Positions 1,947 through 10,900 of a stretch of DNA of 64,000 nt are shown in pieces. Positions within the stretch are counted from its first letter, which is position 1. Every line of letters begins with the position of its first letter. The stretch spans positions 11,470,001 to 11,534,000 of the forward strand of contig NC_087248.1 in the NCBI RefSeq assembly GCF_037042905.1. Direction: 5' to 3'. The stretch is from Lytechinus pictus (Eukaryota). A program made the position numbers and the translations under genes. The notes under the pieces are model-generated. The model ran no database searches. It had not been told where the DNA came from and saw nothing but the letters and a program-made list of their open reading frames with translations.

Positions 1947-4900
1947 ATGGCTCAGAAAACGGAAGATGTGGCTTGTAAAAGTGGAAAGAAAACCGAAACA
2001 TTCAGCTTTGGTCCATGGACAATAACAAGTGTGAAAGCACATATATCAAAGACAGATGTAGTAACCAAGTGAGTAGCATAAAACTTTGTTTGGAGACTTT
2101 TTGAATAATGTAATCGGAACTTCGGAATGTCATTCGTTATTGATAATTAAATGTTGGACATTTCCATTACCGGTGTGTGCGATTTTTAAGCATGCATGCC
2201 GTATTGCTTAATCACGTTTCTGTGTTTCCTCCGCCTCCGGATACCGCGGATGATTTTGTCATACCTTTATACCTTTATACCTTTATACCTTTATACCGCA
2301 TCTACTGGAAAAATACAGTTGTTCCTGCAGTCAAGTTTCCAGGTCTATCTTGTTGTCTTCCTATCTTGTTGTCTTCCTAGCTTGTTGTCTTCCTAGCTTG
2401 GATAAGTTCGAAAACTGAGTCTGTGCTATTTGTGCAATGTGCTGTGCCAATTAATGTATTGGAATGAAATAGGCACTATAACTACATGTAGGTCCGATCT
2501 TATTGCGTTTATAATTTTGAATAGTATTATGTTGATTCCTTTTCCCCTCAAAGGAGGGAGGGAAGGGGCAAAGAGAAGGATAGGAAGAAGAAGGGTGAGG
2601 AGGAAGAGAGACAGACAAAACTAAATCACTGTAGCGGTCGCGCCCCTAGCTTGACCACTAGGTTGATACCTGAAGCTAGAATATAAGGAATAAGTCACTA
2701 ACCAGTATTTTCCTGGAGTGATGTCCTAGTTCCTGTCTATTCCGTGTGAGTTCAGCTTCAAATACGATGATCCAAGGGATCCAACGTCCTCCAGCGTCTA
2801 AAAGGGGTCCAGCGCCATCTCCCGGTGGAAGACCTATATGGGGGGTGGGGTGACTTACTACAACAGTCCCCCCCGTTCTATAAAACTCGGTCCCTCGAGT
2901 TTCCAACCCAAATGGACACTATCCAAACCAGACAAAGGGAGGAAAAAATTTTCCACTCCCTAGGCACCCCAACCAGGAGACCTTATCTCCCGGCTGGGCA
3001 TGAGTAAATACAAGCCCATTTCAAAATTCCCTTTGGTCTTTTATGTACACAATGCTCCTTAAAATTTGGCAAAAAGTACTTATGCAGCATTGTGCTGTCC
3101 CAAGTCTGCATTCCCAAAAATTAATTATAATTTAATACCCGTAATCAGCCATAAACAAATCCTGTGTCTTATATAAATAAAAACTCCAAAACTATCCAAA
3201 ACACTTGGCACAACTGTGCTAAAACTTGTTCAACACTTTAAACTTCAAAAAACCTGTAACATGAAAAACGTTTAAACCCGTAATAACTCTTATCAACCTA
3301 TTTATTTACACTGGAGGTAGAATTTTTGGGTCCATACCTCCCTGAGGTTCTTTAAAAAACCCATACAAAACATATAGAACAATGGTATATATATATAAAA
3401 ATATAAAACCCATACAAAAACCCATATCCCAGGAGGGTCCCCCCTTCCCAGAAAGCTCCACTTTCCCATAGCAGTGGGCTGCCGCTGGCCCTCCCCTGTC
3501 GAGGCACCATCTTACCCGGGCTGTGCAACACATAGCATTCCCGTTCGGTTGAGAGACTGGAGCACCAGTACCCAACCTAGGTCCCCCAGGTGCAGGAAGG
3601 GGGCGTCAGCGCTGCCATTATGCAAAAAGGGCCATTTAAAACACTCCCCTCCAAAGCGGACCATGAAGCATTTCCTACATGGCCTAAATATACAAAAAGA
3701 TAGACGAAAACATAGACAACGAACACAAAAGACACCAAGAGGAGGCGACCCAGCTGGTCTCCTCCTGTACAGAAAACATGTAGGGTCCTAAACGCGCTAA
3801 CCTAACCCCAAAAAATGCAAAGGGAATCAGAATCCCTTCGTAAAAAATGGAGGACAAAGTTCCTCCATTCCCCTTTCCTACCCTCACTACACCCCATAGA
3901 GCGCCAGATGATTAATCCGAGCACGCTCCATGAGGGTGAGGAAACCTATGCGCCTAGCTGAGGCGACAAGTTCTCCCACCTCCCCGATGTATGCAGGGGT
4001 CAAACATCTGACCCCCCTACGGGAAGATATGGAGAATCAGTCTCCAGCAATAACTTGGAGAGAGGAACCTTCCTCAATGCGTCCAGCTGCTCCCCGGTGA
4101 AATGTTTCACCTTGCAGCCGAAGCTGAAGTAGGTATTGGGGAAAGTTTTTCCCCAAGCCTCGACCTCTAGAGGCCCAAGAGTACAACAGTGGATATGAAC
4201 CCGCTGATGTCTGTTGGCCCTCGTCCTGGTCGCTTCTCTTACAATCCTAGAGGGGACATCGGAAGTTTTTCCGTCTTCTCCCCGCAGATGCAGTATCAGG
4301 ACTTTGCCAGTAGCCCCGATAGTACGGCTGCTTGCCTGTAATCTGGTAGAGGAAACACGATCCAGGTGAACCCATTTTTCAACAGGGAGCGATCCCGTCT
4401 CCCTTCCCTTCAATTTTTTCAGTTTCCCCCAGCACCTCAGAGCAGGTTACCTTAAGGTGCCTATCAGATGGGTTTACAACATAGAGCTCTGTCTTCCCAG
4501 CCCTGTAAACCGAACTGGGAACTAGGAGCAGTAAGCCATCCTAAGGGTTAAACATGAAATCCCCTAAACGTTGGTCTAAAATGCCGGTGATTCGCTTGAG
4601 TGCATTCGGGGGAACAATTACTCGCTTGTGCAAATGAACCCGGGCAATCTGCCGCCCAGGGTCATCACTATACCAAAGTGGAATCCTCTGACCTCCCAAC
4701 TGCATATGCGGATCTTGGAGGTGAATCGCAGCCTTGCGCTTGCTGAGGAAATCTAACCCCAGGAGCATATGATCAGCTATAGGGGCTACATATACTTCCT
4801 CCGAGAACGTCTGGTTCCCAAGCTCTATGGAAAGGGGACCGACAATTGTCCCTCTCATCTTCATATCCCGTCCCGCTGCATGTAGGATCACTTCTCTCAG

Positions 4901-7900
4901 TTTAGGGGGCTGGGGGTCTAGTGACTGCAGGAGCCTATCCGAGATGATGGACACCTCGGCTGCGGTATCTACAACTGCGCTTACTGGCTGCCCCCCTATA
5001 ACAACTGAGACCTTGAGAGTAGAGCGCGACTCCAACCTACACACCACTACCTCTTCAATCTCGCTTGCACACCCAAGCCCAGGGAGAGCATCTGGAACTG
5101 ATTCCAGAATGGCTTCACCCAGGTCTGATATTCGGGTGTTCGAGGGAACTGGATCCCTCGCCGCAGCCTCTACATAAGTAGCTATTCCGGTTACATTATT
5201 CCCTGGGACTATCAGGCGCTCTGACACGCCCTCTGTTATTCCTTCAGATGAGCCTACAGATGGCCCCTCTGGGCTGCTTGCTAGCTTGGAACCCTCTATT
5301 TGGCCTCTGGCGGTGGGGGCCGGGGGCTGGCCAGCTCCTCCGACCCGCTGGAGTTTTCCTCCTCCTGGTCCCCTACAAAGGAAACTTGTACCTTGGCCCT
5401 GTTTTCCTGGACCAAAGGACAATTGTTCCTGTAGTGGCCAATCCCGCCGCACTCATAGCACCGGTCCCGACCGGGTGACCTCCCGCGTTCACGCGCTGGT
5501 TGGGGCCTAGTCTGGATAGCCTCCAGGACCTTCTTGAGGTCCCGTTCCAAACCACCCAGACGCTGCAGATCCCGCTCGATGTGGCCCAAGCGTTCATCGG
5601 TCTTGCGTTCGAGGTTCACCAACCTTTGCTCAAGTGCTGCATTGTTCCCTTGGGGTAGTTCCACCTTACGGACCTCCCCTTCATTAGCCTTAGACACTGC
5701 CTTGGGACGCCCGTACATTGCGCGGTGCACGTGTTGGTGCCACTCAATATACTTAAGCGCCTCATTAACAGTAGATGGATTACGCGTAAGCGCATGGCAC
5801 CCCGCCTCTCGGTTGAGGGCGCCCTGGCACAAGCGAAGGACCGCCTGTCTATTCGGGTAAGGGCCATCGACCCCTGGAAATGCACGCGCCGCTAGTTGGA
5901 GTACCCGGTCGGCCCATTCCGGCAGGGACTCGGTGGGTCCCTGCTTGGCCGCCACAAACTCCAGCTGAGCAGATTCGGAAAGACCTTCCTCCCCGAACCT
6001 GTGCTGCAGCCTGGCTATCACGTCTGCATAAAGCAGATTGGGCTCTTGATCTAGGACCATTAACAGATAATCTTCTGCCTTCCCTTTCAGGCCCCAGTAT
6101 AGCTGGCTTACGCGCTCCGCGGCATTCCAATTGTGGTGATCAGCAAAGGCTGAGAACTTCCTAAAGAAAGCCCTCCAGTTACCCTTGCCGTCGAAAGTGA
6201 GGGACTTTGGCAGCGTGCAATAAGGTAACCCACCGCCAGTCCCCCTTCCCGAGGAAGCACTAGAGTTCGCCGGTGACGCCGCCGGGCTACTTGGCGGTGA
6301 AGATGAACTGTGCTGGGCTGGGCGTGTCATACCCGCCCGCACATTTCTTGCGCTGTAGTCTGGGGTAGGGGGTGGGGCTGAGGACCCCCTCCCATCTCCT
6401 ACCCTGGTCCTTATCCCCTGCCTCCCCCCCAGGGAGGGATGCCTAGCGGGGAAGTCATCACCCCCGGACCACTCGCTGGAATCACCACTTACCTGCCCGC
6501 ATCTATTCGCATGGGCCTCATTAGCCTCTTCACCTATTAGATGCCTGGGTCTGACCCTCGGCTCTACACCACCCCCCATGCCTGCCCCTCGGGTGCTTGG
6601 GGGCTGGTGCCCCCTCTCTCCCCGGAGGTGCGAAGGGCTGGCGCCCCAGGACCCACTAGACTGGCTTGCCGCAGGAGGTGGGTAATGATCATATGGGTAA
6701 GCACCCCCTGGCCCCGCCCCATTCTGGTCGGGTTCCCTGAGAGGGGTGCTCATGGTGGGGCGCCCCCTGGGAGTAATGAAAATACTAGACTCTCCCCCCT
6801 GGGTGCCCCCCGAAAAGTCCACTCGTGCGGCTAGTTCTCGATTGTTACACAGCACTGGACTGCTCTCAAAAAGCTCAGGGGTTATCTCCCCATGGTCCAG
6901 TCTGACCCCCTGAATTATCCCGGCTAGGGCTGAGCTTAGCCCTAGCGACCTAAACTCCTCAAAGGAGCACACATTAATGGGGATTTTCTCTTCCCCGTCC
7001 ATGTTGGGTTTACCCTAATTGGTGTTATCCTAGCAAGGTTAAGTTAGGCCCAATACTGAGCCCAACCAAACCCCTGTTGAAATTATCCAAAAGCTATTCT
7101 AAAACTAGGTCTCAATCTAACCCAATCTAGCTTATTAAATTCTTTCTTTTATTTTCTTTTGGCAACTAAATTACAAAAAAGGTCCAAAAGTATACCCCAA
7201 TCAGTTTATGGTTAGGCACAATAATAAGCCCGACCAAAAACCTACTTAAATTTATCCCAGAGAAGCTATCCCAAAAAATTAGGTCCAAATGCAGACCCAA
7301 TTTATTTTATAACAATTCTTTTAATTTTAGCAACTAAAATTATAAACCCGGTACAAGTCCAAAAATATACCTTTAACAGTTAATGGTTAGGCACAGTAAT
7401 TAGCCCGACCAAAACCTGCTAAAGTTATCCAAAAAAGCTATCCCAAAAAATTAGGTCCAAATGCAGACCCAATTTATTTTATAACAATTCTTTTATTTTT
7501 TAGCAACTAAAATTATAAACCCTGTATAAGTCCAAAAATATACCTTTAACAGTTAATGGTTAGGCACAGTAATTAGCCCGACCAAAAAACCTGCTAAAGT
7601 TATCCAAAAAGCTATCCCAAAAAATTAGGTCCAAAAGCGAACCCAATTTATGGTATAAAAGTCTAGCTTTTATTATTAATTAGATTAGTTTAGTCCGGCT
7701 GTTGTTAATAGTTTGCGCTAGCACTGCCAAAAAGAATGATTTTAGTTCTAAAAATATTTATATTAACCTCTAAGCCTAACTTGTCTTTTATTAATTTACC
7801 TATTTATTTTATTAATCCTCGAAGCTGGTTCTATCACACTGGAGTCCAAGTTCAGCACACACAATATTTCATGCACACCGAGTCACCCCACACTCTCTCT

Positions 7901-10900
7901 CAAATAATCTTTCTTTTTCTTTCTTTGATTTTTTTTTTTTTTTCTTTCTCTGAACTCCCCACTACAGTGAGTGGGTGGGTTCACACACTACGCCACCTAC
8001 GTCGCAAACACCCAACACTGTATATCCACACACACACTTCCTACCCCACTCGAAAGTGAACGAGTGGGGCTGCCCGTGTTCTAGATCTAATCTAGATATG
8101 CCTAACAATAAACCCAACTTCGAGGAGCAAAACAACACGCTAAAACAACCACTACACCACAAATATACTAATCGGAAAATAGTATGATTAAAATCCTACC
8201 TATTTCTGTACTTTCCACACCTTCCTCTGCTCAAATTGGTTCTCAAATCAATTTTTTCGTCCGTAAAAATGAATTGGTCGACGATTGCTCAACGATGGAG
8301 GACAAGATGGCGTCTGTGCCAGCAGTGAGGTCGGAACGTATCCCTCCGCGGCAGCCCCGCTACGTGGATCCCGCTCCGTGCCGTCTTCCGGCCCAGCCGT
8401 ACCACCCTTACCCTTCCGCACCCTGCACCCTAACACAAATAGTGCAATCACAAATCACTCACAAAACGACACCAAAATCACCAAAACAACCAAAAACACA
8501 CGTAAAAAATACAATCACACTAACTTGAAACACACAGCCACAACAAGAAACAGAAATAAATAGCAAACAACGACAACAAACACACAACTCCACGACATGT
8601 GTTCTCCTTCTCCTTTGTGGAAATTTCCGTCACGGTACCGGAACTACCATCAGTCCCCGCGACGGAAACCTCCAAAAAAGAGAGGCGACGACTATCGAAA
8701 AAATGTCCCAAGTCAAACTTACCTAGTCTAACTCGGGACACACATACACACCACCTTCCCCGATATTCACAGAATATATATATAAATCGACAGGACCCTA
8801 ATAACTGGACCCTATCTACCAAAATCACCCCAATTTCCTCCCTGATTTTACCCTCTCCAGCGGCGACCGTTTCCCCCCACGCAGCGGGGCATAGGGAATT
8901 ACACGTCCGATGCGAATACGGGGGGCCTTGCTCACCGCGAGACAATCAATCAATATCCCAATTTTAATTTTCAGAAATTGGCCTAAAATGCCCACAAAAG
9001 CAGGCACAGTCAGGCTCGCAGCGCCACTGTAGCGGTCGCGCCCCTAGCTTGACCACTAGGTTGATACCTGAAGCTAGAATATAAGGAATAAGTCACTAAC
9101 CAGTATTTTCCTGGAGTGATGTCCTAGTTCCTGTCTATTCCGTGTGAGTTCAGCTTCAAATACGATGATCCAAGGGATCCAACGTCCTCCAGCGTCTAAA
9201 AGGGGTCCAGCGCCATCTCCCGGTGGAAGACCTATATGGGGGGTGGGGTGACTTACTACAACATCACTCACTGTAGTTTTACTAATACTACTAGTAGTAG
9301 TACTAGGCCCTACTGAAAAACTAGAAGTCTAACGTTAGATTGGATTATCATTTGGATGAGGAGGAAGTAGGAAACTCTGTCTGAGGAGGAGGGAGACTTT
9401 ACATAGACTGCCAGGAGGAGCATAGTCATGGCCGATAAATCGGTCTATTTCGGTTAGGGATATGACTAGACAGCTGGCAGCCGTCTGTTTCGAGGAGTTT
9501 TTTAACTTTTTTTTTTTTTAAATTTCTCCTCGTACACAGACGGCTCGCTAGCGTGCAGCCACCATTAGGGGACTTGCAATGCAAAATCCCCCCGTCGGGG
9601 CTCTTCAATTTTTGTCTTTAATGAATAAAAATTTTGAAAATTAACGCGACCAAAATGCAAATTAATATTCCCTCTTGGCATTAATTGCCAAAAAACAGAG
9701 AAAAATCAAGTTAAAAGGAACAAAAACAGTGACTTACCTCGGCTGTCGCGCAAATTCACTTCCCCGTTTTATCTGATCTTAAGTACATAAACATATTGCC
9801 ATTGAGTCCCCTGTACAGATCGCGCTAGAACTTCGGTCTCTGTATTTGGTGAGTGAAGCCAACGGAGTTCAGCTGAACAACCAACATAACAGAGACCGAA
9901 GCTTTTGGTCTAGGATATGACTAGCCAGGCGGCTTCTAGACGACTAGAGAGTGAAACTCATTTACTAACGTAAGGTCACTCTCATACGAAGCCAGGGCTT
10001 CCGTCATATACTTGTGCGTGTACCACCAAAAAACCTGAAACTTTCGCCCCCGAGATTTCTACTTTCTTTCTAAAAGATCTAGCCCTAAATCATGTACATG
10101 AGATAAAACTTCATTTCCGACATTTCTACGCTCTCGTTGTTATTTTTGAACAAGAATTCATCAAAAAAATGAGAGAAATATTGTGTAAAGACGGAAGAGA
10201 CTTGCCCGATGTTTACGCCGCCATCTTGTTTCCTATTGTTCTTCGCCAACGTTACAGACGCGTGCGTCGGGTAACGTTGGCGAAGAACAATAGAAAACAA
10301 GATGGCGGCGTAAACATCGGGCAAGTCTCTTCCGTCTTTACACAATATTTCTCTCATTTTTTTGATGAATTCTTGTTCAAAAATAACAACGAGAGCGTAG
10401 AAATGTCGGAAATGAAGTTTTATCCCATGTACATGATTTAGGGCTAGATCTTTTAGAAAGAAAGTAGAAATCTCGGGGGCGAAAGTTTCAGGTTTTTTGG
10501 TGGTACACGCAAAAGTATATGACGGAAGCCCTGGCTTCGTATGAGAGTGACCTTACGTTAGTAAATGATTTTCACTCTCTAGAAGCCGCCTGGCTAGATA
10601 TGACTAGGCTGAGAACTCTGGCCCGGCTCTATCCCTCCTTGTCAACAGATCGATGTCTCGTAATGCCAATGGTGGAGGTTTGTCAAAAGCTAGTTAAGAC
10701 TCACCCACGGGTACATTACCGCCGCCGTGCACAGGATAACCACTGGTAGGAATTTGCAATAAGTTTATTCCTCTATTGTAAAAATTAGAAATAGGTACCT
10801 ATTTAAACAAAAAATCGCATTTTGATTGTTGTTTGCGTAATTTCCACCGCAGTATTAAGGATCGGACGGAGTGTCTTGGCTGAGATTTGGGTTAAGCGTT

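Follow-up and report, generated by a model that had tools for sequence, protein, structure and literature searches.

Organization of the element

On the reverse strand of the window (i.e., the whole analysed stretch of 64,000 nucleotides from Lytechinus pictus) lies an internally deleted LTR retrotransposon of the Ty3/Gypsy type, the features of which are compiled in Table 1. The hallmarks of such elements, TG...CA ends of the LTRs, a target-site duplication of 4 bp and a polypurine tract, are all present, and as the two LTRs are moreover identical, the insertion appears to be very young. The 568-aa gag ORF begins with the residues quoted in the preliminary description, and the long G/S/P-rich linker reported there ahead of the capsid is indeed found (46% G+S+P in Gag residues 64-262 vs. 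16% in the capsid region). Public proteins of L. pictus exhibit an N-terminus identical or 91% identical to that of the window Gag. Three RNA runs, about 6% of each of which was read, gave a depth of 0-0.4 over the helix-hairpin-helix (HhH) domain, a sample too thin to be informative.

Table 1. Features of the LTR retrotransposon situated in the window.
Feature	Position	Strand	Characteristics
Ty3/Gypsy LTR element, 6.6 kb	2630..9263 (outer ends of LTRs)	-	internally deleted, young
5' LTR, 236 bp	9028..9263	-	236 of 236 bases identical to 3' LTR; TG...CA ends; 4-bp target duplication at flanks
3' LTR	2630..2865	-	polypurine tract just ahead
gag ORF, 568 aa	5296..7002	-	intact
Degenerate ComEA-type (HhH)2 domain, Gag residues 1-63	6814..7002	-	assigned by profile scores, predicted fold and dN/dS (0.07-0.09)
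First hairpin, L20-G21-L22-S23	6934..6945	-	in alignments one residue short of paralog xPG[IV]G
G/S/P-rich linker, Gag residues 64-262	6217..6813	-	46% G+S+P; dN/dS 0.24-0.29
Capsid (CA) region, Gag residues 263-432	5707..6216	-	Pfam PNMA E 1e-3 (residues 294-369); conserved in 11 clade Gags
CCHC zinc knuckle (nucleocapsid), Gag residues 514-529	5416..5463	-	Pfam zf-CCHC
Start of pol, aspartic protease frame	4541..5452	-	Pfam gag-asp_proteas E 1.7e-10; overlaps end of gag; stop before RT
Approximate junction of internal deletion	4319..4368	-	blastn vs. relative of full-length architecture
ORF3 remnant, C-terminal TatD fragment	4000..4446	-	Pfam TatD_DNase E 2.2e-10, covering profile positions 121-208 out of 253

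Full-length relatives consist of a Gag with the HhH domain, a pol encoding protease (PR), RT, RNase H and an integrase with PHD finger, and a third ORF (ORF3) with TatD at its end; the order PR-RT-RNase H-integrase is seen in L075, L076, L078 and L079 as well as in the same-family copies L061 and L063. In the window copy, RT, RNase H, integrase, the PHD finger and most of ORF3 have been lost. Deletions affect 11 of the 13 copies of the window family examined, which keep at most a TatD fragment. The left breakpoint, just past the protease, is common to the window copy and to all ten other deleted copies compared (L062, L064-L072); gag and protease are intact in all of these, and two types of junction exist. 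The deleted copies give the impression of a non-autonomous lineage that has proliferated since the deletion occurred, and they could be complemented in trans.

Several further observations concern the locus. Comparing window positions 5296-7002 with L002, L003, L005 and L009, synonymous divergence along gag is mosaic (relative to L003, the HhH region shows 0 and the capsid 0.38; relative to L002, the HhH region shows 0.02 and the coil 0.25), which suggests recombination between subfamilies. The 2-kb leader upstream of gag contains three tandem repeats of around 174 bp each (positions 7150-7674). Long inverted repeats at positions 239-679 and 9466-9912, with arms 85-99% complementary, enclose the LTR element and probably represent a DNA-transposon-like element into which the insertion took place; a near-perfect inverted repeat of 312 bp with a 15-nt spacer is situated at positions 9944-10582.

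Identity of the N-terminal Gag domain

The beginning of Gag had been described as a diverged ComEA/HHH_3-type HhH motif, and the spacing of IN, S-EE, L-G, A-II, R and G on which this was based is present in the window Gag. Searched alone against Pfam, its first 70-80 residues yield no match at E<=10, and the curated cut-off of HHH_3 (27 bits) is not reached. When Gag residues 1-70 were searched against the genome of L. pictus, 44 matches were obtained, namely 18 close copies with 87-100% identity, in all 18 of which the HhH domain is found, and 26 sequences at 34-44% identity, many of which sit at the start of frames of 500-730 aa. In several of these distant paralogs the hairpin reads xPG[IV]G, and five paralogs (L028, L029, L077, L079, L080) reach the HHH_3 threshold. 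They align with the window Gag across the whole domain; the latter differs by a gap of one residue before G21 and by Ser at the second glycine, such that the hairpin LGLS was rightly called degenerate. Elsewhere, L031:1258-2697 is an open frame of 480 aa in which a canonical HHH_3 (60 bits) is the only Pfam match.

A 16-row profile that leaves out the window family scores the window domain at 49.0 bits (best of 2000 shuffles: 8.4), and a profile of nine canonical-hairpin rows at 39.4 bits (best of 2000 shuffles: 6.8). Profiles of three host HhH domains and of five metagenome Gag domains give only 2.9 and 3.8 bits, and here 14 and 5 of 2000 shuffles, respectively, score at least as high. Given strong scores with paralog profiles and weak direct ones with host and metagenome profiles, homology of the window domain to HhH domains is transitive via the paralogs. 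Searching PDB sequences with a family profile of 12 rows, the first matches were EEPD1 (E 7.6e-13), ComEA (3.7e-9) and a ComEA-related protein (6.4e-7); the rank of EEPD1 sums two domains, and the best single-domain score is that of ComEA (33.0 bits vs. 27.6 for EEPD1). Both bacterial ComEA and a host EEPD1-like protein may thus be considered as donors of the domain.

The AlphaFold model of the window domain, built on an alignment that included canonical paralogs, has five helices and a pLDDT of 81. With Foldseek, neither this model nor that of a canonical paralog found anything at E<=0.001 (top match of the window model: ComEA, E 1.9), and this part of the structural check proposed in the preliminary description gave no support. 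In the wide structure search, the first five matches for the window model were ComEA (Z 6.8, rmsd 2.6, 64 aligned residues), Tex (Z 6.4), the ComEA-related 2duy (Z 5.2), TEFM and KIF22, and the canonical-paralog model matched ComEA at Z 8.8. Both ComEA values are modest, lying within or near the range that the tool calls common (Z under about 8). The window domain is predicted to adopt the helical (HhH)2 fold. A homodimer prediction scored 0.02, to which no weight is given in either direction.

Paralog sequences, profile scores, conservation and predicted fold thus agree, and judged by these comparisons the N-terminal segment of Gag is almost certainly a diverged (HhH)2 domain of the ComEA/HHH_3 type. 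An HhH-like structural match and conservation among related Gags, on which the preliminary description had made this assignment dependent, were both found, with ComEA as best match (Z 6.8) and the domain shared by related Gags.

Selection on the domain

In five comparisons chosen for sufficient divergence (dS 0.64-0.69), all of which include the window copy and are hence non-independent, dN/dS amounts to 0.07-0.09 in the HhH domain, 0.09-0.19 in the capsid and 0.24-0.29 in the linker. A count of distinct variants in 17 of the 18 copies (the interrupted L004 was left out) gives 0.16 for the domain, 0.13 for the capsid and 0.42 for the linker. Despite its erosion, the HhH domain is under strong purifying selection, similar to the capsid; this means that the domain matters, and says nothing of what it does.

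A chance resemblance or a functionless, decaying relic is hardly conceivable under these circumstances. Such a reading could draw on the lack of a direct Pfam match, on the weak scores of the host-only and distant-only profiles and on the Foldseek result; it is largely refuted by the leave-out profile, which far exceeds its shuffle maximum, and by the low dN/dS, and the presence of the domain in all 18 close copies likewise contradicts it.

Distribution and the relation to TatD

From an RT search, 150 of 1145 candidates were scored, 33 of which are at least 68% identical and the remainder at most 55%. Among the 33 clade copies, an N-terminal HhH domain lies within 8 kb upstream of RT in 30 and TatD within 8 kb downstream in 25; the three copies without the HhH domain show no capsid region either in the DNA scanned. 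In 18 outgroup elements, chosen among 117 more distant RT matches, a profile scan found no HhH domain, PHD finger or TatD, and 19 upstream ORFs of outgroup elements had no HHH Pfam match at E<=0.05. A quick tree of RT-RNase H (47 rows, midpoint-rooted, no bootstrap, built from the sequences compiled here) places every HhH and TatD element in one clade of 22 rows (SH-aLRT 100), counting row L094, which was labelled HhH although its Gag was unseen. We infer a single capture of the HhH domain in the ancestor of this clade. An unrelated Gypsy element of the same genome has a different domain at the start of its Gag, an RRM (L125:6899-8200, reverse strand; Pfam RRM_1 E 1.3e-11).

Outside L. pictus, the domain starts one protein of the starfish Patiria miniata and four ENA proteins, of which two represent complete Gags. 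On metagenome contigs, it starts the Gags of L164 and of the sister-group elements L167, L168, L170 and L174 (HHH_3 E 3.7e-6 to 0.14); in L164 and L167, the start of Gag spans the terminal overlap of the contig. This sister group (L167, L168, L170, L171, L174) is 58-64% identical in RT, with an HhH-Gag in four of the five (the fifth is cut off), TatD in three of the five and no match to the PHD profile in any; the PHD finger therefore looks like a later gain. Other searches contributed less. The word-indexed homolog searches returned 2, 1 and 2 proteins, so few, and all from L. pictus, that they are mute on taxonomic range; the whole-library profile search was dominated by tandem HhH repeat proteins, with a single N-terminal match in 7 of the 150 matches listed. 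The ESM Atlas, queried with the domain of a canonical paralog, gave HHH_3 clusters (top score 0.90) and no Gag cluster with HHH_3 among the matches listed, and a scan of IMG/VR with the capsid alignment found no relatives.

It had been suggested that the domain works together with TatD, either by providing the nuclease of the element with DNA binding or by recruiting it. The co-occurrence proposed as a check does exist: both domains are found in 22 of the 33 clade copies within 8 kb of RT, TatD occurs in three sister-group metagenome elements as well, and both domains are missing from all 18 outgroup elements. All such elements form a single clade, however, so that common ancestry explains the co-occurrence. 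TatD, moreover, is encoded by a separate third ORF in full-length relatives and remains only as a C-terminal fragment in the window copy, and the two domains are uncoupled in L103, a complete element (LTRs 97% identical) with HhH domain and PHD finger but no TatD match in the 3.4 kb ahead of the 3' LTR; its relatives L102 and L104 have no TatD match either. A direct partnership between HhH domain and TatD is therefore highly improbable. The TatD ORFs of L082, L083 and L095 comprise 775, 763 and 1180 aa, respectively; neither gag nor pol was matched in the upstream DNA scanned, and these are possibly solo or domesticated copies of ORF3.

Hairpins, lysines and charge

The first hairpin of the window domain reads GLS instead of GhG, following the deletion of one residue. 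In alignment A6, hairpin 1 deviates from GhG in 7 of the 13 own-genome rows, and hairpin 2 lacks GhG in the window Gag and in all 18 Gag rows; the motif is present in the three host rows. Within the subclade of the window family (SH-aLRT 94), the first hairpin is non-canonical in all three members whose Gag was seen, and on a separate branch formed by L084, L102 and L103 (SH-aLRT 98) two residues of the hairpin are deleted. As the shortened hairpins are found on two separate branches, the hairpin was probably lost at least twice, independently.

In the excerpts available of PMC3879209 and PMC9747964, the lysines following the GIG hairpin of Vibrio cholerae ComEA are described as necessary for DNA binding and the mutation G60A as harmless (PMC3879209), and the equivalent lysine as essential in Bacillus and Geobacillus (PMC9747964). 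R71 of V. cholerae ComEA, at the end of helix 2, is presumably structural. By spacing from the hairpin, the positions of K62/K63 are occupied by Ala25/Leu26 in the window domain, and the DNA-contacting lysines (V. cholerae K62/K63, B. subtilis K164) are absent from it and from most canonical Gag paralogs. R34, the conserved Arg that ends helix 2, lies 11 residues past the third position of the hairpin and is invariant in alignment A1 and nearly so in A6. The window domain has 5 K/R vs. 11 D/E; this net charge of -6 argues against DNA as a partner and fits any basic one, histones not exclusively. Among 19 rows, 16 have a negative net charge, and that of the three host domains is +1 to +2.

The DNA binding suggested for this module in the preliminary description is hence doubtful for the window domain, with its hairpin deletion, its missing lysine pair and its acidity (cf. 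the available parts of PMC3879209 and PMC9747964). It is, likewise, unlikely that the domain binds DNA canonically and protects or compacts the cDNA of the element, comparable to BAF in retroviral pre-integration complexes: the hairpin is one residue short, Ala and Leu stand in place of the required lysines, acidic residues prevail, and a position outside the particle would separate the domain from the packaged genome. Still, the HhH motif of BAF is reported to bind dsDNA and to block autointegration (PMC3381236, in the part available), the exchange of G for S may be tolerated given the harmless G60A, and paralogs with canonical hairpins exist. What BAF would share with the Gag domain is HhH-based, non-specific dsDNA binding in the cycle of a retroelement, but it is a host-encoded dimer (PMC3381236) and is absent from the 50 listed fold matches of each model.

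A protein-interaction module unrelated to chromatin, in which the HhH fold serves as scaffold for Gag-Gag assembly or for contact with a host trafficking or restriction factor, is a tentative alternative that we consider somewhat unlikely. The best-conserved positions are the core residues C12, I30, R34, D62 and F63 and not the hairpin, which, together with the frequent loss of GhG and the prevailing negative charge, suits such a module, as does the dimerisation of XPF-ERCC1 by (HhH)2 domains mentioned in the available text of PMC12988330. Against it, six own-genome families and the distant L164, L174, P0124, P0135 and P0142 have kept a GhG or near-GhG first hairpin, which suggests that the hairpin is in use in at least some lineages.

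A possible role in chromatin tethering

We tentatively favour a reading, to which we give a probability of roughly 40%, in which the HhH domain acts as a weak chromatin tether present in many copies, in the window family probably by protein contacts rather than by a grip on the DNA backbone. The domain occupies the matrix/p12 position ahead of the capsid, on a G/S/P-rich linker of 200 residues. Since the N-terminus of the Ty3 capsid points outward (PMC6525542, in the part available), the linker would let the domain hang outside the particle, with many copies displayed. Its ancestral role may have been non-specific dsDNA binding by avidity; in the window family, the acidic domain would hold on to host chromatin weakly and multivalently, likely by protein contacts. 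The PHD finger at the end of the core-clade integrases fits this theme of chromatin targeting.

In MLV, p12 is situated N-terminally to the capsid in Gag. It binds nucleosomes directly and in this way anchors the complex carrying the capsid to mitotic chromatin, according to the excerpt available of PMC6021111, and a chromatin-binding sequence of foamy virus Gag is a comparable tether. The analogy is functional only: these are short nucleosome-binding peptides, whereas the Gag studied here has an HhH domain of predicted fold, and no homology is claimed.

Among HhH proteins, the DNA-binding domain of ComEA (HHH_3, PF12836; PDB 8dss, 2duy) resembles the window domain in predicted fold, motif spacing and the Arg at R34, and is the best structural match of both models; the window domain differs by its fusion to Gag, the deletion and G-to-S exchange in hairpin 1, the missing lysine pair, the lack of GhG in hairpin 2 and its acidity. 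The (HhH)2 domains at the N-terminus of EEPD1 (PDB 9yi2), an animal protein and the top PDB sequence match of the family profile, offer further parallels in the available text of PMC12988330: a flexible tether and binding by avidity only (the domains alone do not bind DNA, but are required in the full dimer). A GLS hairpin is also seen in the second domain of EEPD1. EEPD1, however, is a host repair protein with two (HhH)2 domains and an EEP fold.

That LTR elements capture DNA- or chromatin-binding domains is already known, e.g., from CopiaMBD and the chromoviruses (PMC6673714, in the part available); these differ in superfamily or position and carry other domains, and MBD binding was shown experimentally, whereas binding by the HhH-Gag is putative. 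The 'helix-hairpin-helix' of CERV was considered as a precedent and dismissed, as it is, in the available excerpt of PMC10309623, a predicted helical domain with a leucine zipper and not a ComEA-type Gag domain. In the open-access literature, we found no description of an HhH-Gag (subscription papers, Repbase reports and supplements might list the architecture) and, judged by titles, no element-encoded TatD in LTR retrotransposons. The accessible portions of three papers contain no mention of 'PHD' (PMC6238403), of TatD, HhH or PHD (PMC13524379) and of HHH (PMC8321522).

Implications

Taken together, a Gypsy clade of marine invertebrates would have captured an (HhH)2 domain on Gag beside TatD and later a PHD finger on its integrase, and in the window family and a second lineage this domain would now be a pseudo-HhH without a grip on DNA, constrained like the capsid and tethering the particle to chromatin via protein contacts; as a whole, this scenario is rather doubtful. 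To our knowledge, chromatin access and target choice of LTR retrotransposons without a chromodomain have been little studied beyond yeast and flies. The HhH-Gag clade offers for this a compact candidate domain with a predicted fold, ranging from canonical to eroded hairpins within the one genome of a sea urchin used in the laboratory, and because these natural variants coexist, the binding target is directly testable. A caution concerns public annotation, where some animal 'HhH domain proteins' are Gags; P0008, e.g., is a Gag, yet annotated as an uncharacterized protein with PF12836. If the scenario holds true, tethering of the p12 kind would have been invented independently, and natural DNA-binding and non-binding variants of one domain would exist within a single genome.
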